Below, one piece after another: positions 2,213-45,839 of a stretch of DNA of 46,847 bases. A program made the position numbers and the translations under genes. Source of the DNA: a virus (taxonomy: Duplodnaviria > Heunggongvirae > Uroviricota > Caudoviricetes); IMG/VR virus record IMGVR_UViG_2923318301_000001, positions 1-46,847 of that record. The stretch is one strand, 5' to 3'. Position 1 is the first letter of the stretch, and every line of letters begins with the position of its first letter. The notes below the pieces were generated by a model. The model searched no databases. It had not been told where the DNA came from and saw only the letters and a list, made by a program, of their open reading frames with translations.

Positions 2213-2368
2213 ATCTACCTCGTAATACGTTGCTTGACTATGTGAGATAGTAAATCATTGTTTTTTTAAGTTTTCTGTGAATTTGGAGAAAAAATTTTTG
2301 GGAATAGAATTACCCCAAATTGGGCGTTATTTTTTAGTTCTAACGCACAATTTGGGAACATCCTTCCT

Positions 2369-3124: not shown

Positions 3125-4403
3125 GGCGTGTTCTCCTTCCGAACTCGTAAGGGCTTATATGTATTTCTCGATTGGCGTCCAGATAATCTGCCCACCATTG
3201 AAGCATTAGTTTGCGCTCTTCTAAGTAATCAGCCTTGTGCTTGTAGGCTCTTTTAACGTCTTTATATTCTTTGTGGCTCATCTGGCGCTCTACTGCGTCC
3301 TCCTGCCACAAACCGGACTCCATCAGGGAACTACAGGCTGTGGCACGGAATCCATGTCCAGTTACGTCCTCTTGCGTGTTATAGCCCATTAAGCGTAATG
3401 CCTTGTTTACCGTGTTTTCACTCATCACGCCTTTGGTGTTTCTTTCATTCGGAAACACAACATCGTAGCTTCCGCTTAGTTCTCTCAACTGCTTTACAAT
3501 AGAAACAGCCTGACGGCTAAGAAGCACGATATGTTCGTCTTTTCCCGTTTTTGTGCCACGGGTGGAAAACCTCACACCATCGATAGGCTCTCTTTTTTTA
3601 GGGATAATCCACTCAGCCCGATCAAGGTCAAACTCTTTCCAACGGGCAAACCTTAACTCGCTTGAACGAACAAATGTCAACATGGTTAGCTCAATGGCAA
3701 GGCGGGTAAGAGGATTACCTTTAAAGCTGCCCAATCGAGTGAAAAAGTCTGGTAAATCTCTGGGATGTAGTGCGGCATGATGCTTAGTTTCATATTGCAT
3801 TAACCGGACATCGAGATCATTCGTGATGATTTCTGTCTTAATGCCGCTCAGACGGGCGCTATGTATGATGTCCTTAACTCGTTGTTTAAGTCGGTTGGCT
3901 GTATCGTGTTTCCCGGCGTCATCTACCTTCTTAAACAAAGGTAAAATTGTCATCGCCTCCAGTTTGCGAATATCCGAAGTGCCAATGTGAGGGAAAATAT
4001 ACATTTCAAGGCTTCTAAGTACGCGTTTTCGTTGGTCTTCGTTCCACATCTGGTGGCTTTCAACCCATTGACGTCCTATTGTCTCAAAAGTGAATGCGCC
4101 TTTTTCTTCTGCTTTTGCTGCTCTTTGCTCTGCTTTGGGATCTATCCCCTTGACTAACAACTTTTTGGCGTTGTCTCGTTTTTCTCTGGCGTCTTGTAAG
4201 CTAATGGTTGGATATACACCAAAAGCAAGTCTGTCTTCTTTCTTATCTGATGGGCGGCGATACTTCATTCGCCAATACTTCGACCCGGTCTGGGATACTT
4301 CAAGATAAAGACCACCACCATCAGACAATTTATAAGTTTTGTCTCGTGGCTTAGCTGCTTTGCACTGACGGTCTGTTAATTTGTTGAGGGTATTTCTGGA
4401 CAT
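3117..4403 (-). CDS. int: Tyrosine site-specific integrase (P4-type)
   Basis: 428 aa; N-terminal arm-binding-like region, C-terminal catalytic region with HGFRAT motif and downstream Tyr; start 164 bp from the att repeat. Confidence 0.9.
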   Translation of the reverse strand: MSRNTLNKLTDRQCKAAKPRDKTYKLSDGGGLYLEVSQTGSKYWRMKYRRPSDKKEDRLAFGVYPTISLQDAREKRDNAKKLLVKGIDPKAEQRAAKAEEKGAFTFETIGRQWVESHQMWNEDQRKRVLRSLEMYIFPHIGTSDIRKLEAMTILPLFKKVDDAGKHDTANRLKQRVKDIIHSARLSGIKTEIITNDLDVRLMQYETKHHAALHPRDLPDFFTRLGSFKGNPLTRLAIELTMLTFVRSSELRFARWKEFDLDRAEWIIPKKREPIDGVRFSTRGTKTGKDEHIVLLSRQAVSIVKQLRELSGSYDVVFPNERNTKGVMSENTVNKALRLMGYNTQEDVTGHGFRATACSSLMESGLWQEDAVERQMSHKEYKDVKRAYKHKADYLEERKLMLQWWADYLDANREIHISPYEFGRRTRRD

Positions 4404-4566
4404 GTTGGGGGCACATATACAATCGAACCAGCAATGCCCCTAATTATGCCCCATAGATTTACTTGATTTCAATAGACGGAAATGGACGTCATGAGAATAA
4501 AATCTCTTTATTTTTATATGTTTACATGGGATTTATAGACAATGGTAGACGTTGGTGTACAGCGGG

Positions 4567-4582
4567 ATGGTGTCCCCTGCAG
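4567..4582. repeat. att core repeat (attR of prophage, shared with island to the left)
   Basis: atggtgtcccctgcag is identical to the 3' end of tRNA-Arg at 45764..45779. Confidence 0.75.
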
Positions 4583-12912: not shown

Positions 12913-13722
12913 ATGAATAATCTGATGGTCATTGATGGTATTGAAGTTCGTCGTGATGCTTATGGACGTTATAGCCTGAACGATCTGCATCGCGCAGCAG
13001 TAGCATCTGGTGCAAATGCCAGAACCAAGGAGCCAGGAAAGTTTCTTTCCAGCCAACAAACTGTTGAGCTTGTTCATGAATTGACCAACACCCAGAATTT
13101 GGGTGTTGACCCGGTGAGTGTGATTCATGGGGGAAATGAACGGGGAACGTATGTCTGTAAGGAACTGGTGTATGCCTATGCAATGTGGATCAGCCCGTCA
13201 TTCCATCTGAAGGTGATCCGTACTTTCGATATGGTAACCAGCGCACCGGAAAAATTATCCGGGCAGGCTGCTGACAAGATGCAGGCTGGAGTGATTCTGC
13301 TGGACTTTATGCGCAGGGAGTTAAACCTGTCTAACTCATCTGTGCTTGGGGCCTGTCAGAAACTCCAGGAGGCTATTGGCTTACCGAATCTGGCACCGCG
13401 TTATGCCATTGATGCTCCTGCTGACGCGCCTGATGGCTCAAGCCGCCCCACGCTGTCACTGAGTGCACTGCTGAAGCAGTATGGTATCCGCCTGACGGCT
13501 AATCAGGCATATCACCAGATGGCGAAGCTGGGGATCGTCGAACAGCGCGAACGATACAGCCGTACAGCGATTAACAACATCAAAAAATTCTGGTCGCTGA
13601 CAGCGAAAGGCTGCATGTTCGGCAAGAACATCACCAGTCCCGCAAATCCGCGCGAGACGCAGCCGCATTTCTTCGAATCCCGATTCCCTGAGCTGTTAAA
13701 GCTGCTCGATACCGTTCATTGA
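12913..13722 (+). CDS. KilA-N domain protein (antirepressor-like)
   Basis: 269 aa; N-terminal KilA-N-like region (IDGIEVRRDAYGRYSLNDLHRAA...). Confidence 0.7.
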   Translation: MNNLMVIDGIEVRRDAYGRYSLNDLHRAAVASGANARTKEPGKFLSSQQTVELVHELTNTQNLGVDPVSVIHGGNERGTYVCKELVYAYAMWISPSFHLKVIRTFDMVTSAPEKLSGQAADKMQAGVILLDFMRRELNLSNSSVLGACQKLQEAIGLPNLAPRYAIDAPADAPDGSSRPTLSLSALLKQYGIRLTANQAYHQMAKLGIVEQRERYSRTAINNIKKFWSLTAKGCMFGKNITSPANPRETQPHFFESRFPELLKLLDTVH

Positions 13723-13723
13723 G

Positions 13724-14719
13724 GTGACCGTGAGAGCACTACTGACCCCTGAAATTGCCCCGCGTATGGGGATCGTATTGTTCAGGCCAGGTTCAGAGCT
13801 GATGCCCCTGTTTATGCAGGGGCGTGTCCTGCTGGAGCCTGAGCCGGAACGTTATTCATCTTTCGCCAGTGGTGCCGTTCCGGCGGCATCACAACCGCTG
13901 GCGGATGATCCTGCCGTTCGGGCCGTGTTCCGCAATGAGGCAGTGATCCGTCGTGCTGGTGGCGTGGAATGTCTTGAAAGCTGGTTACTTCGTGAAAAAG
14001 GCTGCCAGTGGCCTCATTCCGACTGGCACAGCGAGAACATGACCACAATGCGACACGCTCCGGGTGCAATCCGTCTGTGCTGGCACTGCGATAACCAGCT
14101 GCGCGATCAGTTCACGGAACGGCTGGAATCAATGGCAACGGATAACTGTGCCCGCTGGGTGTTGTCTGTTGTGCGTCGGGATCTCGGTTTTGATGACAGT
14201 CACGTTGTGACAATGCCGGAACTGTGCTGGTGGCTGATTCGTAATGATCTGGCGGATGCCTTACCGGAAAGTGCAGCCCGTAAGGCACTGAGATTACCGA
14301 AGCCTGTTGTGCCGTCTGTTACCCGGGAAAGTGACCTTGTGCCTTCGGTTCCTGCCACCAGCATCATCCAGGATAAGGCGAAAAAGGTGCTGGCGCTGAA
14401 AGTGGATCCGGAGTCGCCGGAGTCTTTTATGTTACGCCCAAAACGTCGCCGCTGGGTTAATGAAAAGTACACGCGCTGGGTTAAGACACAGCCGTGTGCA
14501 TGTTGTGGAAAGCCCGCTGATGATCCCCACCACCTGATAGGTCACGGTCAGGGTGGAATGGGAACAAAAGCGCATGACCTTTTTGTGTTGCCTTTGTGCA
14601 GAAAGCATCACGACGAGCTGCATGCAGATACCGTGGCATTTGAAGAGAAGTATGGCTCCCAACTGGAGCTGATATTTCGTTTTATCGATCGTGTGCTGGC
14701 AATTGGCGTACTGGCCTGA
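13724..14719 (+). CDS. DUF968-type phage protein with HNH-like Cys/His motif
   Basis: 331 aa (GTG start at 13724, or ATG at 13766); C-terminal CACCGKPADDPHHLIGHG...LCRKHHDELH. Confidence 0.7.
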   Translation: MTVRALLTPEIAPRMGIVLFRPGSELMPLFMQGRVLLEPEPERYSSFASGAVPAASQPLADDPAVRAVFRNEAVIRRAGGVECLESWLLREKGCQWPHSDWHSENMTTMRHAPGAIRLCWHCDNQLRDQFTERLESMATDNCARWVLSVVRRDLGFDDSHVVTMPELCWWLIRNDLADALPESAARKALRLPKPVVPSVTRESDLVPSVPATSIIQDKAKKVLALKVDPESPESFMLRPKRRRWVNEKYTRWVKTQPCACCGKPADDPHHLIGHGQGGMGTKAHDLFVLPLCRKHHDELHADTVAFEEKYGSQLELIFRFIDRVLAIGVLA

Positions 14720-14736
14720 TTTTGTGGAGAAAGTTG

Positions 14737-15099
14737 ATGCGTGATATTCAAATGGTTCTGGATCGTTGGGGAGCATGGGCGGCGAGTGATAGTTCAGGAG
14801 TTGACTATTCTCCTATAGCTGCTGGGTTTAAAGGGCTTCTTCCCTATACAAGCAAAACACGTCAGGCTTGTTCAGATAGTGATGCATTAATTCTTGAAGG
14901 TTGTCTTGCTCGTCTAAAGCAAAAAAGGCCGGACGAACATTCGCTTCTTGTTGCCCATTACCTATTCGGTATCTCTAAAAGAAAGCTCGCCAAGGCTCGT
15001 AAAAAGGATGAGAAATTAATACGCATTGAGATACAGATGGCTGAGGGATTTATCGATGGTTGCCTTAGTATGCTCGATATACGTTTAGAATGTGAATAG
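14737..15099 (+). CDS. Late-gene antiterminator Q-like protein
   Basis: 120 aa from ATG at 14737 with GGAG ribosome-binding site (track uses TTG at 14722); sits between the nin-type region and the lysis genes; followed directly by a terminator. Confidence 0.6.
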   Translation: MRDIQMVLDRWGAWAASDSSGVDYSPIAAGFKGLLPYTSKTRQACSDSDALILEGCLARLKQKRPDEHSLLVAHYLFGISKRKLAKARKKDEKLIRIEIQMAEGFIDGCLSMLDIRLECE

Positions 15100-15303: not shown

Positions 15304-16299
15304 TTATCCATGTCGAGCCCACCCCTCTGAGATAAGGTTATGATTTATGCCGAACTGACCTGGGACGCCTGGAACTTGCAAACGCTGTAACATCCCCTCA
15401 GTGCGGAATTGATATGAAAACGTGTCTGGAGCCTCTAAAATGCTTCTGACAGATACGTACGATGCCTGGTTAACTGTTCCTAAGATAGCATTTGGGTCAA
15501 AAGGTTCACCCAGATGCATCTCAGTTTTGAAATCTTCATAAATTTCTTTGATCAGACCGTAAAGGTGCTCATCTGGTTTTTCCACCGTAAGACCTAAATC
15601 GTTTACCGCTTCAATCCTATTTATAGTGTAGTCATGGCTACCAGAATCACTACAAAGGAAACTTACAATTTTCTCAATGCTTTCACTATCAGTGAGTTGG
15701 TGAGACAGTAGTTTTCTTGCGAGCATTTGAATCTGCGCTTTAGCTCGATAGACTTTTCCAAGTACCAAGGGATGAACCTTTTCACTTAATGCAAGGAGGA
15801 TCTGTGCAAGTGAGGCATCATCTTTGATACTCAAATCATGCTTAACTACTTCAAGATAGCCATTGATTTCTTCAACACTGACTGGAAGTTGAAGTGGCTG
15901 CCCATTGATTATGACCGAAGGGTTAAGTGGTGTATTCACACTTGGATCGATTGGCCCTAAGGTTGCCTGCTTGGTCATAACCAAGTTGTTCGCGCCAAGG
16001 CACATTATCGTCCCAGAACTATGGCATTTTGATGGGATTATGATTTCGAGTTCTTTACAAAACTGACGAAGCAGGTTTACAAGGCTCCATGCTGTTAAAG
16101 TGTCGCCGCCTCGCGTATAGAGCACGAGGCTAATTTTTTGAACATCACCTATCACATCAAGATGATTGACGAACAGATCGAATACATCAGCGCTGATTTG
16201 AGCTTCTTGGTTTGGTCTATCACCTGTTACATAGCATAATACTTTTGAATTGCGTGCTTGTTCCAGTTGCGCATACAGGGCTTTACGCTGCTCAAACAT
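15304..16299 (-). CDS. ClpP/S49-fold serine protease-like protein, reverse-oriented insertion between Q and the lysis cassette
   Basis: 331 aa; LVLYTRGGDTLTAWSLVN ... SKCHSSGTIMCLGAN ... ATLGPIDPS parallels the ClpP/SppA pattern (INSPGG ... GxASMG ... MIHQP); opposite strand to the flanking late genes. Confidence 0.7.
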   Translation of the reverse strand: MFEQRKALYAQLEQARNSKVLCYVTGDRPNQEAQISADVFDLFVNHLDVIGDVQKISLVLYTRGGDTLTAWSLVNLLRQFCKELEIIIPSKCHSSGTIMCLGANNLVMTKQATLGPIDPSVNTPLNPSVIINGQPLQLPVSVEEINGYLEVVKHDLSIKDDASLAQILLALSEKVHPLVLGKVYRAKAQIQMLARKLLSHQLTDSESIEKIVSFLCSDSGSHDYTINRIEAVNDLGLTVEKPDEHLYGLIKEIYEDFKTEMHLGEPFDPNAILGTVNQASYVSVRSILEAPDTFSYQFRTEGMLQRLQVPGVPGQFGINHNLISEGWARHG

Positions 16300-17083: not shown

Positions 17084-17560
17084 ATGCAGGTACTAAATTC
17101 CCAGCGTAAAGCTTTCCTGGATATGGTGGCATGGTCAGAAGGAACGGATAACGGGCGACAACCGACACGTAACCACGGTTATGACGTTATTGTCGGTGGC
17201 GAACTCTTCACTGATTACTCCGATCACCCTCGAAAACTTGTCACGCTAAACCCGAAACTCAAATCAACAGCCGCAGGCCGTTATCAACTTCTTTCACGCT
17301 GGTGGGATGCTTACCGCAAGCAGTTAGGGCTGACAGACTTCTCTCCTAAAAGCCAGGACGCTGTTGCATTGCAGCAGATTAAGGAGCGTGGCGCTTTACT
17401 AATGATTGATCGCGGTGACATCCGTCAGGCAATCGACCGTTGCAGCAATATCTGGGCCTCATTGCCGGGCGCTGGTTATGGTCAGTTCGAGCATAAGGCT
17501 GACAGTCTGATTTCAAAATTCAAAGAAGCAGGCGGAACGGTCAGAGAGATTGAGGCATGA
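17084..17560 (+). CDS. R: Endolysin, lambda R-type lytic transglycosylase
   Basis: 158 aa; near-identical to my recollection of lambda R ([56 protein letters not shown]...). Confidence 0.9.
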
Positions 17561-18018
17561 GCAGAGTCACCGCGATTATCTCCGCTCTGATAATCTGCAT
17601 CATCGTCTGCCTGTCATGGGCTGTTAATCATTATCGTGATAACGCCATTACCTATAAAGAGCAGCGCGACAAAAACGCCAGAGAACTGAAGCTGGCGAAC
17701 TCGACAATTACTGATATGCAGCTTCGCCAGCGTGATGTTGCTGCGCTCGATGCAAAATACACGAAGGAGTTAGCTGATGCGAAAGCTGAAAATGATGCTC
17801 TGCGTGATGATGTTGCCGCTGGTCGTCGTCGGTTGCACATCAAAGCAGTCTGTCAGTCAGTGCGTGAAGCCACCACCGCCTCCGGCGTGGATAATGCAGC
17901 CTCCCCCCGACTGGCAGACACCGCTGAACGGAATTATTTCACCCTCAGAGATAGACTGATAATAATGCAGAAACAACTAGAAGGGACTCAGCAGTATATT
18001 AAGGAACAGTGCAGATAA
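17557..18018 (+). CDS. Rz: i-spanin Rz
   Basis: 153 aa; N-terminal transmembrane segment, coiled-coil body; closely resembles lambda Rz; overlaps the R stop. Confidence 0.85.
17777..17959 (+). CDS. Rz1: o-spanin Rz1 (lipoprotein, embedded in Rz in +1 frame)
   Basis: 60 aa; lipobox LVVVGC, proline-rich; matches lambda Rz1. Confidence 0.8.
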
Positions 18019-18049
18019 AGTTGACCATATTGATGGGCAACTCATGCAA

Positions 18050-18343
18050 TTATTGTGAGCAATATACCCGTGCTTCCAGCGGAGTATAAATGCCAAAAGT
18101 GATGAAACCGAGCAATCCATTTACGAATGTTTGCTGGGTTTCTGTTTTAACCACATTTTCTGCACCACCACAAATTTTTGCTGCATCGACAGTTTTCTTC
18201 TGCCCAATTCCCGAAACGAAGAAATGATGGGTGATGGTTTCCTTTGGTGTTACTGCTGTCGGTTTGTTTCCAACAGTAAACGTCTGTTGAGCACATCCTG
18301 TAATAAGCATTGCCAGCGCGGCAGAAAACAACATTTTTTTCAT
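18050..18343 (-). CDS. bor: Bor lipoprotein (serum-resistance moron)
   Basis: 97 aa from MKKML; lipobox LITGC; closely matches lambda Bor; opposite orientation to the late operon. Confidence 0.85.
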   Translation of the reverse strand: MKKMLFSAALAMLITGCAQQTFTVGNKPTAVTPKETITHHFFVSGIGQKKTVDAAKICGGAENVVKTETQQTFVNGLLGFITFGIYTPLEARVYCSQ

Positions 18344-34399: not shown

Positions 34400-37300
34400 A
34401 TGGGTAAAGGTAGCAGTAAGGGGCATACCCCGCGCGAAGCGAAGGACAACCTGAAGTCCACGCAGCTGCTGAGTGTGATCGATGCCATCAGCGAAGGGCC
34501 GGTTGAAGGTCCGGTGGATGGATTAAAAAGCGTGCTGCTGAACAGTACGCCGGTGCTGGACACTGAGGGGAATACCAACATCTCCGGTGTCACGGTGGTG
34601 TTCCGTGCCGGTGAGCAGGAGCAGACACCGCCGGAGGGGTTTGAATCCTCCGGCTCCGAGACGGTGCTGGGTACGGAAGTGAAATATGACACGCCGATCA
34701 CCCGCACCATTACGTCTGCAAACATCGACCGTCTGCGCTTTACCTTCGGCGTGCAGGCACTGGTGGAAACCACCTCAAAGGGGGACCGGAATCCGTCGGA
34801 AGTCCGCCTGCTGGTTCAGATCCAGCGTAATGGTGGCTGGGTGACGGAAAAAGACATCACCATTAAGGGCAAAACCACCTCGCAGTATCTGGCCTCGGTG
34901 GTGGTGGGTAACCTGCCGCCGCGCCCGTTCAATATACGGATGCGCAGGATGACGCCGGACAGCACCACAGACCAGCTGCAGAACAAAACGCTCTGGTCGT
35001 CATACACCGAAATCATCGATGTGAAACAGTGCTACCCGAACACGGCACTGGTCGGCGTGCAGGTGGATTCGGAGCAGTTCGGCAGCCAGCAGGTGAGCCG
35101 TAATTATCATCTGCGCGGGCGCATTCTGCAGGTGCCGTCGAACTATAACCCGCAGACGCGGCAATACAGCGGTATCTGGGACGGAACGTTTAAGCCAGCA
35201 TACAGCAACAACATGGCCTGGTGTCTGTGGGATATGCTGACCCATCCGCGCTACGGCATGGGGAAACGTCTTGGTGCGGCGGATGTGGACAAATGGGCGC
35301 TGTATGTCATCGGCCAGCATTGCGATCAGTCGGTGCCGGACGGTTTTGGCGGCACAGAGCCGCGCATCACCTGTAATGCGTACCTGACCACACAGCGCAA
35401 GGCGTGGGATGTGCTCAGTGATTTCTGCTCTGCGATGCGCTGTATGCCGGTATGGAACGGGCAGACGCTGACGTTCGTGCAGGACCGACCGTCGGATAAG
35501 GTGTGGACCTATAACCGCAGTAATGTGGTGATGCCGGATGATGGTGCGCCGTTCCGCTACAGCTTCAGCGCCCTGAAGGACCGCCATAATGCCGTTGAGG
35601 TGAACTGGATTGACCCGAATAACGGCTGGGAGACGGCGACAGAGCTTGTGGAGGACACGCAGGCCATTGCCCGTTACGGTCGTAACGTCACGAAGATGGA
35701 TGCTTTTGGCTGTACCAGCCGGGGGCAGGCACACCGCGCCGGGCTGTGGCTGATTAAAACAGAACTGCTGGAAACGCAGACCGTGGACTTCAGCGTGGGT
35801 GCCGAAGGGCTTCGCCATGTACCGGGCGATGTCATTGAAATCTGCGATGATGACTATGCCGGTATCCGCACCGGCGGGCGCGTGCTGGCGGTAAACAGCC
35901 AGACCCGGACGCTGACGCTCGACCGTGAAATCACGCTGCCATCTTCCGGCACCACGCTGATAAGCCTGGTTGACGGGCAGGGGAGTCCGGTCAGCGTGGA
36001 GGTTCAGTCCGTCACCGACGGCGTGAAGGTGAAAGTGAGCCGTGTTCCTGACGGCGTTGCTGAATACAGCGTATGGGGGCTGAAGCTGTCGACGTTGCGC
36101 CAGCGCCTGTTCCGCTGCGTGAGTATCCGTGAGAACGACGACGGCACGTATGCCATCACCGCCGTGCAGCATGTACCGGAAAAAGAGGCCATCGTGGATA
36201 ACGGGGCGCACTTTGACGGCGACCAGAGCGGCACGGTAAATGGTGTCACGCCGCCAGCGGTGCAGCACCTGACCGCAGAAGTCACCGCAGACAGCGGGGA
36301 ATACCAGGTGCTGGCGCGCTGGGACACGCCGAAGGTGGTGAAGGGCGTGAGCTTCCTGCTTCGCCTGACCGTGGCAGCGGATGACGGCCGTGAGCGGCTG
36401 GTCAGCACGGCCCGGACGACGGAAACCACTTACCGCTTCACACAACTGGCTCTGGGGAACTACAGGCTGACAGTCCGGGCAGTAAATGCGTGGGGGCAGC
36501 AGGGCGATCCGGCGTCGGTATCGTTCCGGATTGCCGCACCGGCAGCGCCGTCGCGGATTGAGCTGACGCCGGGCTATTTTCAGATAACCGCCACGCCGCA
36601 TCTTGCGGTTTATGACCCGACGGTACAGTTTGAGTTCTGGTTCTCGGAAAAACGGATTGCGGATATCAGGCAGGTTGAAACCAGCGCGCGTTATCTTGGT
36701 ACGGCACTGTACTGGATAGCCGCCAGTATCAATATCAAACCGGGCCATGATTATTATTTTTACGTTCGCAGTGTGAACACCGTTGGCAAATCGGCATTCG
36801 TGGAGGCTGTCGGTCGGGCGAGCGATGATGCGGAAGGTTACCTGGATTTTTTCAAAGGCAAGATAACCGAATCCCATCTCGGTAAAGAGCTGCTGGAAAA
36901 AGTTGATCTGACGGAGGATAACGCCAGCAGACTGGATGAGTTTTCGAAAGAGTGGAAGGACGCTAACGATAAATGGAATGCCATGTGGGGCGTCAAAATT
37001 GAGCAGACCAAAGACGGCAAACATTATGTCGCGGGTATTGGCCTCAGCATGGAGGACACGGAGGAAGGCAAGCTGAGCCAGTTTCTGGTTGCCGCTAACC
37101 GTATCGCGTTTATTGACCCGGCAAACGGGAATGAAACGCCGATGTTTGTGGCGCAGGGCAACCAGATATTCATGAACGACGTGTTCCTGAAGCGCCTGAC
37201 AGCCCCCACCATTACCAGCGGTGGCAGTCCTCCGGTATTTTCCCTGACATCAGACGGAAAGCTGACCGCTAAAAATGCGGATATCAGTGGTAGTGTGAAT

Positions 37301-37813
37301 GCGAACTCAGGAACGCTCAACAATGTCACGATTAACCAGAACTGTACGATTAAGGGCATGCTGGAGGCGACCCAGGTCAGAGGGGATTTCGTTAAAGCTG
37401 TATCAAAAGCCTTCCCGAAAAAAGTCGGTACGTGGGGTAACACGGAAACACCAAACGGTACGGTTACAGTCACCATCAGCGATGATCATAACTTTGACCG
37501 CCAGATTATTATTCCGCCCATTATTTTTAACGGTATAGCGTATGACGATCCGGGGAGCGGAAATAACCCAGGAGGCACGCGATACACGGGTTATGGTTTT
37601 GAAGTTCGCAAAAACGGCGTATTAATCGCATCCAGAGAAACTAAAGGGGCCATTCCCGGTAGTTACAGTGCAGTTATTGATATGCCGAGTGGCAGGGGAA
37701 GCGTCACTCTGGAGTTTAAGATTTTCCAGAAAGGCAATCAGGGGGCAGGCAATATCACCGACTGTACGGTGATTGTGACCAAAAAAGCCGCTTCCGGCAT
37801 CAGTATTCGTTGA
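34400..37813 (+). CDS. J: Central tail fibre / host specificity protein J
   Basis: 1137 aa; collinear with lambda J in length and recognisable blocks. Confidence 0.95.
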
Positions 37814-38536: not shown

Positions 38537-38547
38537 GTGGGGTGAAT

Positions 38548-41500
38548 ATGGCAGTAAAGATTTCAGGTGTACTGAAAGACGGCGCAGGTAAACCGGTACA
38601 GAACTGCACAATCCAGCTGAAAGCAAAACGTAACAGCACCACGGTGGTGGTGAACACGGTGGCCTCAGAAAATCCGGATGAAGCCGGGCGTTACAGCATG
38701 GACGTTGAGTACGGTCAGTACAGCGTTATTCTGTTGGTGGAAGGCTTCCCGCCATCGCATGCCGGGACCATCACCGTGTATGAAGACTCACAACCGGGTA
38801 CGCTGAATGATTTTCTCGGTGCCATGACGGAGGATGATGCCCGTCCGGAGGCACTGCGCCGTTTTGAGCTGATGGTGGAAGAAGTGGCGCGTAACGCGTC
38901 CGCGGTGGCACAGAACACGGCAGAGGCTGCTATTTCTGCCTCTCAGGCCGAAGAGTTCGCGAGCAATGCTTCTGAATATGCGCTGAATAAGTTCACGTTC
39001 TATAAAACGCCGAGCGATCCGGACGGTACAATTGCAGGCCTTGCTGCTACTACCAGCGGGCAGTCTTTCCGTGTAGCGGAAGGCCCGGGAGCAACAGCGG
39101 CATTCAAAACCTACGAGAACCAGGATGGCGTGGCTATACTACAGGCTTCTCAGCCAGGCACAGCTGCTATAACAGGGACAATCCGCGAATTTCCCACGCT
39201 GGAGGCGGCACAGGCTGATGCAGACGCTGGCAATATTCTTTCTGGTTCAAAATGCTGGGTAACCAGTGCTATAAATACCTCGCTGGCTGACGAGTATGTA
39301 AATACATCCGGGGTTATGACTGCAACCGGGAGAACAATTATTTCCCAGTACAGCCTATCTTCGTCTATATCAAGAGAAGCAACTAGAAGAAAAAATGGTG
39401 ATTATCAGGATTTGATTGAATTCAAATCTCTTGATGATACAGCACTACCATTACCGGAAAATTCAGTATTAGAATTTTTGTCTCTGGCAACCACTACGGA
39501 TGTAAACACAAACTTCTATCGCCTTGTTTTTTCTTCGCTGGGTTCTGAGGTTGCGTCACTGGTTTTTCCTGGGACGAACACCCAGTATTCTGATGGTAAA
39601 TTCTGGTCAGCGTATCGCCTGTTCCGATTTCAGGATTTGAAGTATGTTTCCATTCTGGAAACGACCAGTAGTGTAGTTCGGGTTCGCTATGACCTGCCGG
39701 CTGGGTTTGGTGTTCCGGTAGCAGGCTCAAACTATATTGCACTTGATATTACAGGCAAGTTTTATCCGGCGCAGGCAGGCTCAGTTAACTCCGTCACAAG
39801 GAAGTCAATATCCGGGACAGCAATTGCCAACGCCATTCAGTTCGTGGTTACCATCGCTGAACTTACGGCTGCTGGTTATACGGCGTCGACCGTTGTTGAT
39901 TACATCAACTCAATAGCGCCAGATTGCCTCTTTGCGGCATATGCGGCATATGATACGACGATTGCCCAGACAGGGTTTGAAGATTTTTTCAGGATTCAGT
40001 TACCTGCTGGTGATTATACCGTTAGCCGTGATGGCTTTGCGCCTTCAGGACTGGCAGTGTTACCTGCCGGTGCGTATTCGGTATGGCGTAAAAAGCCTGT
40101 AAGGCAGGTATTTGTTGGAAACTTCCTGAGAAATGTTGCTGATGTTAAAAATCTGCTGTCGGCAGAATATAAAAACTATCCCGTTGAGCTTAAGGTGTCG
40201 TTTGGTCCCGGCGAAGTGCCAGACTCCGATGCGCTGAAGGTGATGGACGCTGACGGCAACGTGTTTGACTGCCAGTTTGCGGATAACGTTTATCCCAATC
40301 CACGCCTGAAATCGAACACCGGATACCATGCCGACGGCTCCCTGGCATCAGGGTCTGTGTTCATCACCGATACCCTGGCATCAGGACAGCAGAAATATTA
40401 CGAACTCAGGGCATACAATCGTCGCCGCCAGGACCTGGCCTCAGAGTCCTTCCCGCAGCTCGTGAGGGTGGCTGACGGGTTCACCGTTACCGTGGGCGGG
40501 TATGTGTATTTTTTCCAGCGCCAGAACAGCCTGGGGCTGACCAGTATCACCGACCCGGCAGGACAGACGCACAGTTTTGCGCATTCCTGTTACTGTACCG
40601 GGATTGTCTCCGGCGGATCCTCAAGTAACAAGATGGTGCTCGGTGCATCACTGCGCATGGTTAATACCGGGCCGGTCTTTACTGAGCTGGAGCTGACCGT
40701 CAGAAACCGGACCATCGGAACACTGGCTGAAGGGGCGTTACAGTCCACAGTACGCTACCGGATTTTCAAAAATGGCAAGGTGCTTATCCGGGTCATGACC
40801 ACGGCTACGCAAGATATTCCGGCTGGAGTATTATTTGGTGCATATTCCCGTCTGAACCTGAATGATGGTGCATATACCTTTGATGCCGCTAGAGCACTGA
40901 CGTACTGGACGGATTCAGTCACCGGCAAGCGATTTACGGCCACGACGGTCTTTGCTAATGGGGATATCCACCGAGATGGCCCTGCTTATGGGCCAACGCG
41001 CCCGATACGGGCAACGGCGCTGCAACCCACAGGCACAACAACTCGGCTGGACGCGGGATGGCTTTTCGTTGACCTGAATGACGATTCATTCCTGAACTGG
41101 CCTGTGCCAAAAAACTGGACGTGGACACATGAGACATGGATTGACTGCGACAACACCATCACCAGTTCCACCTCAGAGGTTAATGCACTGCTGGTAAGTC
41201 AGGCTAACAACCGCCCGGTAGGGTTCATGGGTGATTGCAGTTATGCAGGTGTTCTGCGGCTGGACATGCTGGAGAAAATCGCCTGTCACGTCAGGGGATC
41301 CGTTGAGTGGTGGAAAAGCACTGACGCTACTGTTTATGGTGGCGGACCCGATGTGAAAACGCAGTTCTATTGCCACATGGCAGAGATTTTTCTGTTAGAA
41401 AAGTATGGCATCAGCACGCTGAACACAGTGTATACGAATTTTAAATCGTACATGAGGGGATTTGGCGGCATAACTAATCCAGGTATTATGTTCACTGATG

Positions 41501-42282
41501 GATGGTGGGGGTTGCAGTTCCAGTCGCGTCTGAGTATTCCGTGCTATGAGTGGCTCTACAAAATGGCGGTGAAGGCCGGAGATACAGCCAAACAAACCGA
41601 GCTGAAGGCGGGGATTAAATCCCTCGCGGATGCCGTCATGGTGTCATATAACACCTATGGTGGCGTGGCTCTGGTGGGGACAGCCACAAACTCAGGAAAC
41701 AGCAACTCTAACGCGACAGCCATGCGCGTGCTGGCGCTGGCGATTTATATGGGGCTGGATACCGGCGGGACGTACCTTGCTGCATTCAATGCGCTGGAGA
41801 CCTTCATCACGAACTCAGCGACATTCATGAAAGCGGAAAACATTATTCTCGATGGCCCGTCGGATTCCACGCTGAAGAGCATGTACCTGCCGTACATGGT
41901 TTACGCCACTAATAACTACCTGCTGGCCTGCAAGCTGCTTAACCGGACACCAAAGTTTGACCTGGTGAATTTTATCCTGACAGCGTCAAACAGCGCGGGA
42001 GGATTCAGTGAGGTGGATTACTGCATCTCTGAAAGCCGACGTGGTGGCGCGAACACTATCGCGTTTGCGTTACTGCCGCTGTTTCAGTCCGCCAGGCCGT
42101 CAGCAATGATTGCCGCAAAATCGCTGTTCGGAATTTTTGAGACGCAGTACGGGCCGAAACCGGGACTACCAAAGCGCTTCTTTGATTTTGACGGCAGCAG
42201 TGCGGCTGGCAGCACGATGTATGACCCGTGCTTTGTGGCGTCAACGCTTGCCGACCTTTGGCTGTCATATGGCTACAATTAA
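38548..42282 (+). CDS. Side tail fibre / tailspike-like protein with lambda Stf N-terminal anchor and divergent large C-terminal region
   Basis: 1246 aa; first ~120 aa near-identical to my recollection of lambda Stf (MAVKISGVLKDGAGKPVQNCTIQLKAKRNSTTVVVNTV...), remainder unrelated to the Stf repeats. Confidence 0.8.
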   Translation: MAVKISGVLKDGAGKPVQNCTIQLKAKRNSTTVVVNTVASENPDEAGRYSMDVEYGQYSVILLVEGFPPSHAGTITVYEDSQPGTLNDFLGAMTEDDARPEALRRFELMVEEVARNASAVAQNTAEAAISASQAEEFASNASEYALNKFTFYKTPSDPDGTIAGLAATTSGQSFRVAEGPGATAAFKTYENQDGVAILQASQPGTAAITGTIREFPTLEAAQADADAGNILSGSKCWVTSAINTSLADEYVNTSGVMTATGRTIISQYSLSSSISREATRRKNGDYQDLIEFKSLDDTALPLPENSVLEFLSLATTTDVNTNFYRLVFSSLGSEVASLVFPGTNTQYSDGKFWSAYRLFRFQDLKYVSILETTSSVVRVRYDLPAGFGVPVAGSNYIALDITGKFYPAQAGSVNSVTRKSISGTAIANAIQFVVTIAELTAAGYTASTVVDYINSIAPDCLFAAYAAYDTTIAQTGFEDFFRIQLPAGDYTVSRDGFAPSGLAVLPAGAYSVWRKKPVRQVFVGNFLRNVADVKNLLSAEYKNYPVELKVSFGPGEVPDSDALKVMDADGNVFDCQFADNVYPNPRLKSNTGYHADGSLASGSVFITDTLASGQQKYYELRAYNRRRQDLASESFPQLVRVADGFTVTVGGYVYFFQRQNSLGLTSITDPAGQTHSFAHSCYCTGIVSGGSSSNKMVLGASLRMVNTGPVFTELELTVRNRTIGTLAEGALQSTVRYRIFKNGKVLIRVMTTATQDIPAGVLFGAYSRLNLNDGAYTFDAARALTYWTDSVTGKRFTATTVFANGDIHRDGPAYGPTRPIRATALQPTGTTTRLDAGWLFVDLNDDSFLNWPVPKNWTWTHETWIDCDNTITSSTSEVNALLVSQANNRPVGFMGDCSYAGVLRLDMLEKIACHVRGSVEWWKSTDATVYGGGPDVKTQFYCHMAEIFLLEKYGISTLNTVYTNFKSYMRGFGGITNPGIMFTDGWWGLQFQSRLSIPCYEWLYKMAVKAGDTAKQTELKAGIKSLADAVMVSYNTYGGVALVGTATNSGNSNSNATAMRVLALAIYMGLDTGGTYLAAFNALETFITNSATFMKAENIILDGPSDSTLKSMYLPYMVYATNNYLLACKLLNRTPKFDLVNFILTASNSAGGFSEVDYCISESRRGGANTIAFALLPLFQSARPSAMIAAKSLFGIFETQYGPKPGLPKRFFDFDGSSAAGSTMYDPCFVASTLADLWLSYGYN

Positions 42283-42296
42283 TGGAAAATAGAAAT

Positions 42297-42324
42297 CAAA
42301 AGGCCTAAATAATACGGCCTTTTG
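42297..42324. terminator. Hairpin after the Stf-like gene (possible terminator)
   Basis: 9-bp stem caaaaggcc / ggccttttg with 10-nt loop; A-tract before and T-tract within/after. Confidence 0.4.
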
Positions 42325-42779
42325 ATTTGCGGGGGTATATATGGCGCTTAAGCTATTAGCCAATAATAACGCAAAGAGTGTTCTCGCTGCGGGTATTAGC
42401 GCGTCCGCTACCGTTATTACCGTGGGTACCGGAGCGGGGGCTTTATTCCCTTCCCCTGTATCTGGACAGAGCTATTTCAAATTAACGATAACCGACGCGG
42501 CCACGAAAACAATATCTGAAATTATGCACGTCACGTCTGTATCCGGTGACGTGATGACAGTAATTCGTGGTCAGGAAGGAACTACGGCACGCGTATGGTC
42601 AACGAATGACATTGTCGCGAATTTAATGACCGCCGGATCATTGTTATCTTTCCTGCAGATCAGCAATAACCTGTCAGAAATTAAAGATGCCGGTGAGGAT
42701 GCGATAAATGAAGCCCGTTATAACCTCGGAATATCTGATTCCTCTGGTTTTGTCGGGCGTTCACTTGGCGCTCCAAAAG

Positions 42780-42788
42780 CTTTCTATG
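42780..42788. repeat. IS903 target-site duplication (left copy)
   Basis: ctttctatg, identical to 43846..43854. Confidence 0.85.
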
Positions 42789-43845
42789 GGCTTTGTTGAA
42801 TAAATCGAACTTTTGCTGAGTTGAAGGATCAGATCACGCATCTTCCCGACAACGCAGACCGTTCCGTGGCAAAGCAAAAGTTCAAAATCACCAACTGGCC
42901 CACCTACAATAAAGCCCTCATCAACCGTGGCTCCATAACTTTCTGGCTGGATGATGAAGCTATTCAGGCCTGGTATGAGTCAGCAACACCTTCTTCACGA
43001 GGCAGACCTCAGCGCTATTCTGACCTTGCCATCACCACCGTTCTGGTCATTAAACGCGTGTTCAGGTTGACCCTGCGGGCTGCACAGGGTTTTATTGATT
43101 CCATTTTTTCTCTGATGAACGTTCCGCTACGCTGCCCGGATTACAGCTGTGTCAGCAGGCGGGCAAAGTCGGTTAATGTCAGTTTCAAAACGCCCACCCG
43201 GGGTGAAATCGCACACCTGGTAATTGATTCCACCGGGCTGAAGGTCTTCGGTGAAGGCGAGTGGAAAGTCAAAAAGCATGGCCAGGAACGCCGCCGTATC
43301 TGGCGTAAGCTGCATCTCGCCGTTGACAGTAAAACACATGAAATCATCTGCGCTGACCTGTCGCTGAACAACGTTACGGACTCAGAGGCCTTCCCCGGGT
43401 TAATCCGGCAAACCCACCGGAAAATCAGGTCAGCCGCCGCCGATGGCGCTTACGATACCCGGCTCTGTCACGATGAACTGCGGCGTAAGAAAATCAGCGC
43501 GCTTATCCCTCCCCGAAAAGGTGCGGGTTACTGGCCCGGTGAATATGCAGACCGTAACCGTGCAGTGGCTAATCAGCGAATGACCGGGAGTAATGCGCGG
43601 TGGAAATGGACAACAGATTACAACCGTCGCTCGATAGCGGAAACGGCGATGTACCGGGTAAAACAGCTGTTCGGGGGTTCACTGACGCTGCGTGACTACG
43701 ATGGTCAGGTTGCGGAGGCTATGGCCCTGGTACGAGCGCTGAACAAAATGACGAAAGCAGGTATGCCTGAAAGCGTGCGTATTGCCTGAAAACACAACCC
43801 GCTACGGGGGAGACTTACCCGAAATCTGATTTATTCAACAAAGCC
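42789..43845 (+). mobile_element. IS903 (IS5 family), intact
   Basis: 1057 bp; 18-bp terminal inverted repeats ggctttgttgaataaatc (42789..42806 and reverse complement at 43828..43845); single transposase ORF; 9-bp direct target duplication. Confidence 0.85.
42866..43789 (+). CDS. IS903 transposase (DDE)
   Basis: 307 aa from GTG at 42866 (track ORF starts at TTG 42821); IS5-family transposase features. Confidence 0.8.
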   Translation: MAKQKFKITNWPTYNKALINRGSITFWLDDEAIQAWYESATPSSRGRPQRYSDLAITTVLVIKRVFRLTLRAAQGFIDSIFSLMNVPLRCPDYSCVSRRAKSVNVSFKTPTRGEIAHLVIDSTGLKVFGEGEWKVKKHGQERRRIWRKLHLAVDSKTHEIICADLSLNNVTDSEAFPGLIRQTHRKIRSAAADGAYDTRLCHDELRRKKISALIPPRKGAGYWPGEYADRNRAVANQRMTGSNARWKWTTDYNRRSIAETAMYRVKQLFGGSLTLRDYDGQVAEAMALVRALNKMTKAGMPESVRIA

Positions 43846-43854
43846 CTTTCTATG
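43846..43854. repeat. IS903 target-site duplication (right copy)
   Basis: ctttctatg, identical to 42780..42788. Confidence 0.85.
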
Positions 43855-44442
43855 CAAACGGAACCTATACGCGATCTCCTCTGGCCCGTTATGCAAAAGT
43901 AACGTTGACCGGCGCCGGTGGTGGCGGTGGCGGCTGCCAGGCCTCCAACAATACAGAAACCTTCTCCGGTGCCGGCGGCGGTGCGGGTGCGACCATTATC
44001 GTATGGGTTGACCTGTCTGCTGCCAGTTCTTACGCGATTACTGTCGGCAAGGGTGGTAAGGGCGGAGTTGGCGCAGTAAGTGGTGCGGATGGTGGTGCTA
44101 CCTCGTTTGCCAGCCTGTTCTCAGCTCCTGGCGGGAAAGGCGGCGTGAAGTCAGGCGTGTCCAATACCGCCGGCGGCGCCGGAGGTACGGCGGCGACCGG
44201 AGATATCAGGATCAACGGTGGTACCGGCTCAGATGGACAGACAGGCTCAAGCCTTCTGACGGGCAACGGCGGGGCGTCGTATTTTGGCGGCGGTGGCCGG
44301 GCGGGTTCTCAGGCCGGTATTGCTGGCGCAGCTCCCGGATCCGGTGGTGGTGGCGCGTATGACCTTGGGTTTACCGGTACGGCATTTACCGGTGGTGATG
44401 GTGCTACTGGCATGGCGATCGTGGAAGAATTCGCGTAATGGC

Positions 44443-45603
44443 TTACACTCCTGCACGACCATCGATGTAATCAGCCCACCACTGCATCATTTCTCTGCGC
44501 TTATCGAGATACTGAGCATGATTGTAAATTCCACGCACAGATCCGCCGTTGGCATGTGCCAGTTGCACTTCAATAGCATCAGCGGGCCATTCGTTCTCGT
44601 TCATAATCGTGCTGAATTCATGCCTGAATCCGTGACCGCTTTCCAGCCCCTCATAGCCGATTTGTTTGATCACAAGCAATACCGCGTTCTCGCAGATTGG
44701 TTTCTTCTTATCGTTGCGCCCGGCAAAAACAAACTCTGAGACTGGTTTGGTGATTGAGCTTAGCGTAGTGAGAAGTTCAACCACCTGGTCTGACATAGGA
44801 ACCACATGAATTTTGCGTCCCTTCATCACACTGGCGTCGATGGTGATAATCCTGTTTTCAAAATCGACGTTCTTCCATAGCATGGAACGAAGCTCTTTCG
44901 TTCTTAGGGCTGTGTAGCGTAAAACTTTGGTCGCAATGAGCGATACGATACTTCCTGAAAATGTTGCCAGTGCTTTATTGAATGCCGGGATCTGGTCTGC
45001 AGGAAGAAACGGGAAGTTCTTCTTGCGGTATCCCTTCATGGCGTCAGCAAGGTCAGGTGCTGGGTTATATTTAGCCCTTCCGGTGACAATAGCGTAACGG
45101 AAAACCTCTCCGCATCTTCTGCGGGCTTTGTTGGCTCGCTCCATTGCACCGCGATCTTCGAATCTTCGGATTACTTCCAGCAGTTGCATCGGCTCAATAT
45201 CCTGAATCTCAAGACCGCCGATGATGGGTAAAATGTCGTCATCAAACATTTTGGCAAGTTCAGTTGCATAGCCTACTGACCAGACTTGCTTCTTGTGCTC
45301 GTACCATTCCTTGTAAATCGCACTAAAGGAATTGTTGTTAGACGAAGCCTTTTTCGCCTTTACCGGATCGATGCCAGCCGAGATGTCTTTCCTCGCAGTC
45401 CATGCCTTATCCCTTGCCTCCTGCAAAGTCATAAGTGGATATTTTCCGACGGTCAGGATTTTCTCCTTACCGTCAATCTTGTAGCGAAGCTGCCATACCT
45501 TTTTCCCGGATACAGGAACATAAAGGTACAGGCCATTACCATCGAGAAGGCGGTATGGTTTTTCTTTCGGCTTTGCTGCTTCAATCTGCTTAACGGTGAG
45601 CAT
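44443..45603 (-). CDS. intS: Prophage integrase IntS (tyrosine recombinase)
   Basis: 386 aa from MLTVKQIEAAKPKEKPYRLLDG (track start at 45639 adds 12 codons); matches my recollection of E. coli IntS; adjacent to argW. Confidence 0.9.
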   Translation of the reverse strand: MLTVKQIEAAKPKEKPYRLLDGNGLYLYVPVSGKKVWQLRYKIDGKEKILTVGKYPLMTLQEARDKAWTARKDISAGIDPVKAKKASSNNNSFSAIYKEWYEHKKQVWSVGYATELAKMFDDDILPIIGGLEIQDIEPMQLLEVIRRFEDRGAMERANKARRRCGEVFRYAIVTGRAKYNPAPDLADAMKGYRKKNFPFLPADQIPAFNKALATFSGSIVSLIATKVLRYTALRTKELRSMLWKNVDFENRIITIDASVMKGRKIHVVPMSDQVVELLTTLSSITKPVSEFVFAGRNDKKKPICENAVLLVIKQIGYEGLESGHGFRHEFSTIMNENEWPADAIEVQLAHANGGSVRGIYNHAQYLDKRREMMQWWADYIDGRAGV

Positions 45604-45763: not shown

Positions 45764-45779
45764 ATGGTGTCCCCTGCAG
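45764..45779. repeat. att core at the tRNA (attL)
   Basis: atggtgtcccctgcag, identical to 4567..4582; covers the tRNA 3' acceptor end. Confidence 0.75.
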
Positions 45780-45839
45780 GAATCGAACCTGCAATTAGCC
45801 CTTAGGAGGGGCTCGTTATATCCATTTAACTAAGAGGAC
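45765..45839 (-). tRNA. argW: tRNA-Arg (anticodon CCU)
   Basis: 75-nt reverse-strand sequence with 3' CCA, T-arm GGTTCGATTCC and anticodon loop CTCCTAA; matches my recollection of E. coli argW. Confidence 0.9.

Follow-up and report, generated by a model that had tools for sequence, protein, structure and literature searches.

A putative glycine-rich tail-fibre gene at the end of a lambda-type E. coli prophage is split by a complete copy of the insertion sequence IS903B, which very probably transposed into the two-module fibre gene of this lambdoid prophage at argW and left a stub without the receptor-binding head, the loss being perhaps that of a silent passenger. The window, which is the whole stretch of DNA that was analysed (46,847 nucleotides of the IMG/VR record IMGVR_UViG_2923318301_000001), provides the positions given throughout. 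A comparison with public genomes showed that the insertion was a single recent event in one prophage lineage that was then inherited clonally. It is an ordinary gene knock-out, which was already present, unremarked, in public genomes; a literature search that combined IS903B, prophage and tail fibre returned no report of this event. The features of the insertion are as follows.

42341..42788, plus strand: 5' part of the fibre gene, codons 1-149 and the first base of codon 150
42341..42799, plus strand: interrupted ORF as it stands, 152 aa, with a TGA stop inside the left inverted repeat
42780..42788, no strand: left CTTTCTATG of the 9-bp target-site duplication; the empty site has this sequence once
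42789..43845, plus strand: complete IS903B (IS5 family), 1057 bp, best full-length match 99.9% to a PGAP-annotated IS903B copy
42789..42806, plus strand: left terminal inverted repeat GGCTTTGTTGAATAAATC
42866..43789, plus strand: transposase ORF, 307 aa, with a GTG start at 42866
43828..43845, minus strand: right terminal inverted repeat
43846..43854, no strand: right copy of the target-site duplication CTTTCTATG, 9 bp, exact
43855..44438, plus strand: 3' part of the fibre gene, from the rest of codon 150 to codon 343 and the stop

The GGCTTTGTTGAATAAATC inverted repeats of the element are perfect over exactly 18 bp, and no copies of this 18-mer were found in the window beyond the two IS ends. 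A length of 1057 bp and terminal inverted repeats of 18 bp are the canonical values of the IS903 group. The transposase, whose ORF is complete, matched the Pfam families DDE_Tnp_1_5 and DDE_Tnp_1 as well as NCBIfam NF033579 (transpos_IS5_2), the latter with 357 bits at a cut-off of 140 and across profile positions 1-289 of 289. The DDE triad is present as D121, D193 and E259 in the 307-aa frame, which follows the numbering of the catalytic residues in the IS903 literature. PGAP uses a different start, a TTG at 42821, which gives 322 aa. The protein is identical to the CDS at the same site in SCEC020023 (WP_000654804.1), annotated by PGAP as ‘IS5-like element IS903B family transposase’. Judging by its sequence, the element can be assigned to the IS903 group of the IS5 family (IS903, IS903B or IS102), and the isoform name IS903B is the RefSeq/PGAP label, which is used here without separating it from IS903 or IS102. 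The best-matching public copies listed, which are annotated as IS903B, all align across the full 1057 bp with 99.8-99.9% identity, and elements of this kind (at least 80% coverage) occur in 1536 of 5426 complete E. coli genomes. An earlier note on this DNA had described an intact 1057-bp IS903; its length and perfect 18-bp repeats hold, while the name becomes IS903B as in RefSeq. The 9-bp duplication that it reported is likewise real, with exact copies on both flanks, and the chance of a 9/9 match at these fixed positions is approximately 4e-6. A 9-bp target duplication is typical of IS903B (PMC13618097). The DDE transposase of the element would have made a staggered 9-bp cut in the target, and its repair would have left CTTTCTATG duplicated.

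When positions 42341-42788 were joined to 43855-44438, that is, when the IS and one duplicate were removed, 1032 nt were obtained that comprise 343 codons and a stop, with the junction ...APKAFYANGTYTRSPLARYAKVTLTGAGGGGGG..., which is the restored frame that had been proposed from the sequence. The truncation, which had been placed at residue ~150, follows codon 149, at the start of the distal domain and within its first strand. The 5' part encodes the N-terminal anchor domain, the helical neck and this first strand. The stub of 152 aa consists of 149 native residues followed by Gly-Leu-Cys from the IS end, and this product would lack the whole receptor-binding head. For the 3' fragment, the starts used by PGAP are a TTG at 43905 and an ATT at 43833 within the right inverted repeat, and a further ATG, at 43852, lies in another frame than the fragment. 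A promoter and terminator scan of positions 42000-44700 gave counts at or below the shuffle expectation and supported no outward promoter able to express the 3' fragment. A functional C-terminal product of this fragment was also considered and was rejected, as it has no credible start codon or anchor domain. The allele would be null for this fibre.

The reconstructed gene occurs uninterrupted in four complete E. coli genomes with 100% nucleotide identity, so that the two segments, which the earlier note expected to align contiguously to an intact homologue, do so without a single difference, and the exact 343-aa protein was found on 127 contigs in public data. Moreover, the empty site that it suggested looking for in populations was detected in the same argW prophage (J-lom-Stf-fibre-intS-argW-yfdC) of two complete genomes, ECSD228 and 23CRST030, with a gapless alignment and one CTTTCTATG. 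ECSD228 differs from the window prophage at 4 of 12,441 nt, and the 1.9 kb surrounding the site is free of differences. The insertion is recent, as had been supposed, given that its flanks do not differ from those of the empty allele. The occupied site was found in two of the 5426 complete genomes, SCEC020023, which belongs to ST617 (PMC6392093), and strain 961; these carriers come from China and Houston. Additionally, the exact 152-aa stub is encoded on at least 23 public contigs, and the insertion junctions were identical in all ten places that were fetched, nine of them draft contigs. The insertion is, therefore, not private to the window and is inherited by a lineage. At seven positions the window differs from SCEC020023, two of them inside the IS; relative to the IS that occupies this site in SCEC020023 and strain 961, the window IS has two synonymous differences. 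The same two substitutions are seen in other IS903B variants, one of which is carried by a SCEC020023 plasmid, and they reflect either an assembly-version or polishing difference or a conversion between IS copies. No full-length copy identical to the window IS was found in the complete genomes, and the window would, therefore, represent another isolate or another assembly version.

The recipient would be a full-length, KplE1/CPS-53-like lambdoid prophage at argW, whose relevant features are listed here.

4567..4582, no strand: 16-nt copy of the tRNA-Arg 3' end (ATGGTGTCCCCTGCAG), left prophage end
34400..37813, plus strand: intact gpJ central tail-fibre gene, 1137 aa (PGAP: phage attachment tail tip protein J, complete)
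38548..42282, plus strand: intact Stf-like side-fibre gene, 1244 aa from the ATG or 1246 aa from a GTG at 38542
42293..42328, plus strand: perfect 13-bp hairpin with a T-rich 3' arm, between the Stf-like stop and the fibre start
44443..45603, minus strand: intS prophage integrase, convergent with the fibre gene, 4 nt past the fibre stop
45765..45839, minus strand: tRNA-Arg (CCU), argW attachment site, right prophage end

The torI (xis) gene lies just inside the left prophage end, and the fibre gene is the last late-operon gene of the prophage. The hairpin looks like a terminator, although it was not among the calls of the simple terminator scan. Apart from the split fibre gene, the prophage is complete; the only genes that PGAP marks are a frameshifted early gene and, in error, the Stf-like gene, which it calls a partial pseudogene. 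The view that J and the Stf-like protein were spared is borne out by the complete ORF and PGAP protein of the former and by the whole ORF of the latter, whose exact protein is recorded at NCBI (WP_247820300.1). Three parts can be told apart in the Stf-like protein: the collar domain of lambda Stf, a module at residues 117-298 that is shared with other proteins, and ~950 aa at the C-terminus. PF08400 was found at residues 3-136, PHROG 20877 spans residues 124-1243, and the collar matched the Ur-lambda Stf collar (PDB 9e7m/9mgh, PMC12617516) with an E-value of 1e-51.

Sequence matches and a predicted fold give good support to the target being a modular tail fibre, putatively a receptor-binding one, in line with the identity that had been suggested at first reading. 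The sole Pfam match of the reconstructed protein is PF21722 Gly_rich_2 at residues 153-340 (52.5 bits, gathering threshold 24.3), and the PHROG search returned tail-fibre families. The top PHROG bears the label ‘tail fiber assembly’, but its profile, matched at positions 309-604, has 690 positions, which is the size of a fibre and not of a chaperone. Since the gene at this place in lambda encodes the Tfa-type assembly chaperone, such a chaperone was considered; this candidate was rejected, as neither Pfam nor PHROG searches revealed similarity to Tfa (Caudo_TAP). Residues 7-105 match PDB 8jov_1, which its depositors labelled ‘putative tail fiber protein’ and which may come from the Ralstonia podophage GP4; a search of the literature on PDB 8JOV returned nothing relevant. 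An AF2 model was built from a 39-sequence alignment on P0001, a cluster representative that is 95% identical to the reconstructed protein, and not on the exact sequence. Its pLDDT exceeds 90 across most of residues 141-343, while the N-terminal domain has low confidence and no fold is claimed for it. When this model was compared with the PDB using Foldseek, the matches were the Pam3 fibre (7ypx, E 1.1e-9, and also 7yfw) and the Bxb1 tail tip (9d93, E 2.1e-9), within an E-value range of 1e-9 to 1e-7, together with a weak match to the ALK glycine-rich domain. Residues 1 to ~130 would form the N-terminal virion anchor and helical neck, and residues ~141 to 343 would form a glycine-rich distal domain of the receptor-specificity kind known from Pam3 gp24 and from TFP_Y of a Klebsiella phage. 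By analogy with these two proteins (PMC9608196, PMC12671077), the fibre may be a virion component that binds a receptor. The N-terminal domain is also seen on fibres with other C-termini, and either module is found with other partners.

The usual home of the fibre gene is a different tail type, from which it appears to have been grafted together with intS onto the lambda-like prophage. The homology to the other phage type begins 9 nt before the fibre ATG and extends 93 nt into intS, and none of the 55 IMG/VR loci with the fibre N-terminal domain has J or a Stf collar within 10 kb upstream. As the fibre would have been grafted from another tail type, it may have been lost without effect. Neither the production of virions nor infection through J should suffer, just as laboratory lambda copes with its stf frameshift; side fibres are dispensable in lambda (PMC12617516). 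We infer that the effect on the host range would be small or nil, because the fibre was probably a passenger that came in with the intS end of another type of phage. Two small ORFs that lie upstream of the fibre in the RothC-type phages, of 79 aa (23 of the 55 loci) and 105 aa (35 of the 55 loci), were considered as its structural partners; this is unlikely, and both are absent from the window. The RothC record labels the corresponding small ORF UmuD.

The use of the fibre by this lambda-type virion is, however, uncertain, and it is possible, if rather unlikely, that the fibre is a working secondary receptor-binding protein docked on the Stf-like module 117-298 to give a branched fibre, in which case the IS would narrow or alter the host range. 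Over this ~180-aa module, the Stf-like protein shares 74% identity with tailspikes from the phage type in which the fibre is usually found; these are SGNH-hydrolase tailspikes of RothC/PDP110-type prophages, and the fibre that accompanies them is 98-100% identical to the one in the window. Of the 55 IMG/VR loci, 36 have the module 3-4 kb upstream of the fibre, and the pair of the Stf-like and fibre genes is conserved in 17 complete genomes, 13 of which have only a short integrase 3' remnant after the fibre, which hints that the pair travels together. However, among the 29 loci that bear the module and continue for at least 5 kb downstream, only ten have the fibre, and in seven loci a similar N-terminal domain is fused directly before the module, as a tail anchor would be rather than a module binder. 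Moreover, an identical Stf-like gene exists without the fibre (locus L077), and the 55 viral loci offer no lambda-type context. In L077, an apparent remnant of the Tfa C-terminus was recognised by eye after the Stf-like gene. A more elaborate form of docking, in which a branched side fibre combines an Ur-lambda-like collar with a docking module and a ~950-aa enzyme-like domain, both borrowed from RothC/PDP110-type tailspikes, and the portable 343-aa fibre docks on that module as a second receptor-binding protein, seems doubtful to us.

Returning to the loss of a passenger, it is very improbable that the insertion was adaptive, with fibre loss being selected, or that it is a switch reversed by precise excision between the 9-bp repeats. 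The frame is exactly restorable and other disrupted alleles exist in the gene family (P0138, P0010 and the frameshifts P0012-P0015), but these differ in position and kind and some may be sequencing errors. Furthermore, complete E. coli genomes gave 73 records with the fibre, of which at most three lack one continuous match, two of these being the IS-bearing genomes, and nothing points to an excision polymorphism in the lineage. We give next to no credence to an assembly artefact in which the repeat was misplaced by the assembler. IS903B is multicopy, with nine matching places in the SCEC020023 chromosome, and the two-SNP patch that the window IS shares with the SCEC020023 plasmid copy suggests polishing across copies; yet the same junctions and duplication occur in two independently assembled complete genomes, nine draft contigs cross from the fibre side 28-127 nt into the left inverted repeat, and a perfect duplication of 9 bp is what genuine transposition leaves behind. 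We give just as little credence to two real genes of 152 aa and 177 aa that have the IS between them by accident, even though PGAP calls a ‘hypothetical protein’ and a ‘glycine-rich domain-containing protein’ and no pseudogene, since the continuous gene stands at full identity in the four complete genomes and its exact product on the 127 contigs, the 152-aa ORF terminates in three IS-encoded codons, and the Pfam domain and the confident fold both start upstream of the 177-aa ORF.

The finding matters little outside annotation. In several RefSeq genomes, two PGAP calls are the halves of one IS-disrupted fibre gene, and the ‘partial pseudogene’ next door is an intact 1244-aa side-fibre gene. The insertion can also serve as a lineage marker, one of its two complete carriers being ST617. 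Additionally, ECSD228 or 23CRST030 compared with SCEC020023 or strain 961 form natural isogenic pairs, which are suited to asking whether a widely exchanged glycine-rich fibre acts on a lambda-type tail. If the branched fibre were real, the IS903B insertion would be a natural, exactly reversible knock-out of one dual-receptor arm, with isogenic empty-site strains at hand.

Among known systems, the insertion of IS903B into cirA of Klebsiella pneumoniae (PMC13618097) shares the element name, a complete IS, a 9-bp duplication, a truncated ORF and clonal inheritance. In that case, however, a host receptor gene is hit, whereas in the window it is a prophage fibre gene with no known phenotype or selection. 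The prophage resembles KplE1/CPS-53 of E. coli K-12 in the same argW site, in intS beside tRNA-Arg(CCU) and yfdC, in torI (xis) at the opposite end and in yfdP-yfdT. KplE1/CPS-53 is a defective argW prophage, a ~10-kb remnant, whereas the window prophage has ~41 kb with head, tail and lysis genes.

The head of Pam3 gp24 and of TFP_Y from the Klebsiella phage SCNJ1-Y carries the receptor specificity, which is for LPS in TFP_Y, and the predicted structure of the window fibre has the same TNF-like and glycine-rich head fold (Foldseek probability 1.0; PMC9608196, PMC12671077). The distal domain of the window fibre has GGGGxGG-type motifs and Gly_rich_2, as does the head of these proteins. The anchor differs, as the window fibre matches the fibre of PDB 8jov while the Pam3 fibre has a helical shaft; the tail context of Pam3 and TFP_Y is also not that of the window, and Pam3 gp24 needs the chaperone gp25, whereas no chaperone gene follows the window fibre gene. 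The stf frameshift of laboratory lambda was reportedly described by Hendrix and Duda in 1992. In lambda PaPa, as compared with Ur-lambda, an accessory fibre was lost by a simple lesion while J-mediated infection remained intact (cited in PMC12617516), and the window Stf-like protein has the collar domain in common with the Stf of Ur-lambda. However, the lesion in lambda PaPa is a frameshift in stf itself, whereas in the window the IS lies downstream, at the position of lambda tfa, and the Stf-like gene is intact.

The earlier note had described an intact IS903 inside a tail-fibre gene, and its structural elements were all present in the window:

42789-43845, IS element of 1057 bp, bounded by perfect 18-bp inverted repeats GGCTTTGTTGAATAAATC
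42780-42788 and 43846-43854, target duplication CTTTCTATG, two exact 9-bp copies flanking the IS

When the whole window was searched, the 18-mer GGCTTTGTTGAATAAATC was confined to the IS ends, and the chance of a 9/9 match at the fixed positions of the duplication is approximately 4e-6. The one long ORF of the element matched Pfam DDE_Tnp_1_5 and DDE_Tnp_1 and covered the full profile of the NCBIfam equivalog NF033579 (IS5 family transposase; 357 bits, cut-off 140). Started at GTG 42866, it encodes a transposase of 307 aa in which D121, D193 and E259 are present, numbered as in the IS903 literature. The kind of element was recognised correctly in the earlier note, and its name is corrected here to IS903B because PGAP names the identical transposase at the occupied site (WP_000654804.1) 'IS5-like element IS903B family transposase'; this designation would not set it apart from IS903 and IS102 by reference sequences. 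Duplication of 9 bp has been reported as the signature of IS903B (PMC13618097), and the element transposed by the standard DDE mechanism, with a staggered cut of 9 bp. Elements of this kind (coverage of at least 80%) were found in 1536 of 5426 complete E. coli genomes, in which full-length copies with 99.8-99.9% identity are common.

Joining 42341-42788 to 43855-44438, that is, removing the IS and one duplicate, restored a 1032-nt ORF of 343 codons with the junction ...APKAFYANGTYTRSPLARYAKVTLTGAGGGGGG... exactly as previously written. The reconstructed fibre protein consists of two modules, and its PHROG matches are overwhelmingly tail-fibre families. The proximal module aligns through residues 7-105 with the N-terminus of chain 1 in PDB 8jov, a 'putative tail fiber protein', and the N-terminal 130-170 residues are elsewhere fused to tail-collar (PF07484), gp53-like (PF21882) or T-even-type repeat C-termini. 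The distal module matches Pfam Gly_rich_2 at residues 153-340, the same domain in which P2-type fibres with PF12571 and PF03406 end; in an AlphaFold2 model made on the 95%-identical cluster representative, pLDDT was >90 over most of residues 141-343. Foldseek matched this domain to the solved Pam3 fibres (7ypx, 7yfw) and to tail-tip chains of mycobacteriophage Bxb1 (9d93) with E values of 1e-9 to 1e-7 and, weakly, to the ALK/LTK glycine-rich domain. In gp24 of the cyanophage Pam3, receptor binding has been proposed for the head, which is TNF-like plus glycine-rich (PMC9608196). The homologous TFP_Y of Klebsiella phage SCNJ1-Y recognises LPS and has host-range mutations in its glycine-rich domain (PMC12671077).

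The insertion point, after codon 149, is a few residues inside the distal domain as confidently modelled and roughly 15 residues beyond where homology to other N-termini begins. The present ORF (42341-42799) encodes 152 aa, of which 149 are native, in line with the claimed truncation near residue 150, and these are followed by Gly-Leu-Cys from the inverted repeat and then TGA. This stub retains the anchor and neck and has lost the head completely. No ATG lies in frame in the 3' fragment (the PGAP starts are TTG or ATT), and its product would have no anchor. The IS-bearing allele is either null or truncated. Because the next gene, intS, is convergent, there is no downstream target for polarity. 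Other fibre homologues are also disrupted: P0012-P0015 are frameshifted exactly at the poly-glycine codon tract GGTGGTGGCGGTGGCGGC (43909-43930), while P0138 (214 aa, at least 34 contigs) and P0010 (Raoultella) are truncated elsewhere. These could represent true decay or sequencing errors in G-rich repeats.

In the population, both segments of the reconstructed gene aligned contiguously to uninterrupted homologues, with 100% identity along the full 1032 nt in four complete E. coli genomes and 94-99% identity in approximately 65 further ones. Among these four, ECSD228 (Shandong) and 23CRST030 (Ecuador) have the empty site in the same prophage and location, with the gene order J-lom-Stf-like-fibre-intS-tRNA-Arg-yfdC, and both aligned without gaps to the window minus the IS; ECSD228 had four mismatches in 12,441 nt, all of them outside the 1.9 kb that surrounds the insertion site. 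The occupied site was found in two of the 5426 complete genomes, SCEC020023 (Sichuan), which is ST617 (PMC6392093), and strain 961 (Houston). Moreover, the exact 152-aa stub, including its IS-encoded tail, was present in at least 23 contigs of a larger protein collection. The junction between the fibre gene and the inverted repeat was identical in all ten places that were fetched, nine of which were draft contigs ending 28-127 nt into the IS; short-read assemblies typically break at repeats. Taken together, the empty-site alleles and the junctions shared by the carriers show that the insertion is real, single and recent; it is passed on within a lineage and not confined to a single isolate. 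The recency that was proposed earlier holds, and the scope of the event is corrected to that of a lineage marker.

The window differs from SCEC020023 at seven positions across 46.8 kb, and neither complete carrier genome is byte-identical to it; most simply, the window comes from a third isolate or represents the assembly in another version or state of polishing. Two of the seven differences, at 43483 and 43510, are synonymous changes in the transposase relative to the same-site copy in both complete genomes. No identical full-length copy of the window's IS was found among the complete genomes. The two bases recur in other IS903B variants, one of which is on plasmid NZ_CP025944.3 of SCEC020023, and reflect either gene conversion between IS copies or an assembly in which polishing mixed them.

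The host element is related to the KplE1/CPS-53 prophage of K-12 and is of full length. At its right end, intS adjoins tRNA-Arg(CCU) and yfdC, the left end carries torI (xis) and the yfdP-yfdT genes, and the interior holds immunity, replication, Q, lysis, head and lambda-type tail modules, all complete. A second small integrative element sits in tandem at argW (1-4582) and extends past the left window edge:

4567-4582, 16-nt copy of the tRNA-Arg 3' end, at the left prophage end, boundary to the tandem second element
3117-4403, minus strand, tyrosine recombinase of the second element
1-1053, minus strand, 'rolling circle replication-associated protein' of the second element

The prophage also carries lom after J and, on the opposite strand, an 'SDH family Clp fold serine proteinase' gene after Q (17304-18299 of the compared locus L006, about 15304-16299 of the window) and iss, for the increased serum survival lipoprotein, 3' of the lysis genes (L006 20050-20343, about 18050-18343).

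The central tail-fibre gene J (1137 aa) and the Stf-like side-fibre gene (38542-42282; 1244/1246 aa; exact protein WP_247820300.1 in NCBI) are both intact, so the statement that they were untouched was correct. Over its first 94 residues, the Stf-like protein matches the collar of Ur-lambda Stf (PDB 9e7m/9mgh, E 1e-51; PMC12617516). PHROG 20877, whose function is unassigned, spans residues 124-1243 and was the sole match of the C-terminal part of approximately 950 aa in the Pfam, NCBIfam, PDB and PHROG comparisons. In at least five complete genomes (including loci L002-L005), PGAP calls this gene a 'partial pseudogene, missing C-terminus' and annotates only its first 445 nt, leaving about 3.3 kb of coding sequence unannotated.

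Neither J nor a Stf collar was found within 10 kb upstream in any of the 55 IMG/VR loci encoding the fibre's N-terminal domain. All 55 have a different tail end, of the Klebsiella phage RothC and PDP110 types, in which the fibre is likewise the last late gene and adjoins the integrase. Among 72 complete E. coli genomes carrying the fibre gene, 17 have the Stf-like gene upstream, and in 13 genomes what comes after the pair is a short remnant of an integrase 3' end, which PGAP labels 'integrase'. Homology between the window and the RothC-type copies runs from 9 nt 5' of the ATG to 93 nt past the stop, inside the 3' end of intS. Additionally, the IMG/VR contig 2737471824_000005 (L077) has the Stf-like gene at 99% identity without the fibre downstream. 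The simplest explanation is that the fibre-plus-intS end of an argW phage of another tail type recombined onto this lambda-type prophage. Compared with L001 (NZ_CP185938.1, bio/ybhB locus) over 42332-44531, the fibre gene acts as a portable cassette. L001 has a 100%-identical fibre gene with a wholly different tail module at another attachment site, and a second copy in NZ_CP185938.1, 97.7% identical, lies at argW. A perfect 13-bp hairpin with a T-rich 3' arm (42293-42328) separates the Stf-like stop codon from the fibre start codon; similarity to RothC-type loci begins close to it, at 42332, and similarity to L077 seems, by eye from ORF translations, to stop near it. In the fibre's place, L077 has, at the locus listed as 13664-15040, a putative Tfa C-terminal remnant (by eye), followed on the opposite strand by a 458-aa ORF that looks reverse-transcriptase-like by eye and could be a candidate defence gene.

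Contrary to a pure 'orphan' fibre, the Stf-like protein could offer a docking site through the following module, which sits as a graft behind its lambda Stf collar domain:

38890-39435, shared module of approximately 180 aa, Stf-like residues 117-298, 42-86% identical to RothC/PDP110-type tailspikes

Residues 140-261 are 74% identical to the tailspikes of these phages, and 36 of the 55 IMG/VR loci have the module upstream of the fibre. However, among the 29 module-bearing loci that extend far enough downstream, only 10 have the fibre, and in seven IMG/VR loci (e.g., L137, L138 and L152) a domain like the fibre N-terminus is fused directly before the module. Fibre truncation as such is supported, while the absence of J and the Stf collar from the 55 loci lowers the certainty of a phenotype.

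Overall, the observation made in the earlier note is confirmed and its interpretation supported. The knock-out of a prophage accessory gene by an IS is a routine phenomenon, the element and gene family have been catalogued before, and RefSeq already contains the locus, annotated as separate genes. We infer that the effect of fibre loss would be limited to adsorption or host range, and there may be no effect at all if this tail does not accommodate the fibre. Virion production and J-dependent infection would presumably be unaffected by the IS, for which laboratory lambda provides a model of a disrupted fibre with unimpaired J infection: its stf frameshift removes the side fibres and leaves plaque counts unchanged (PMC12617516).
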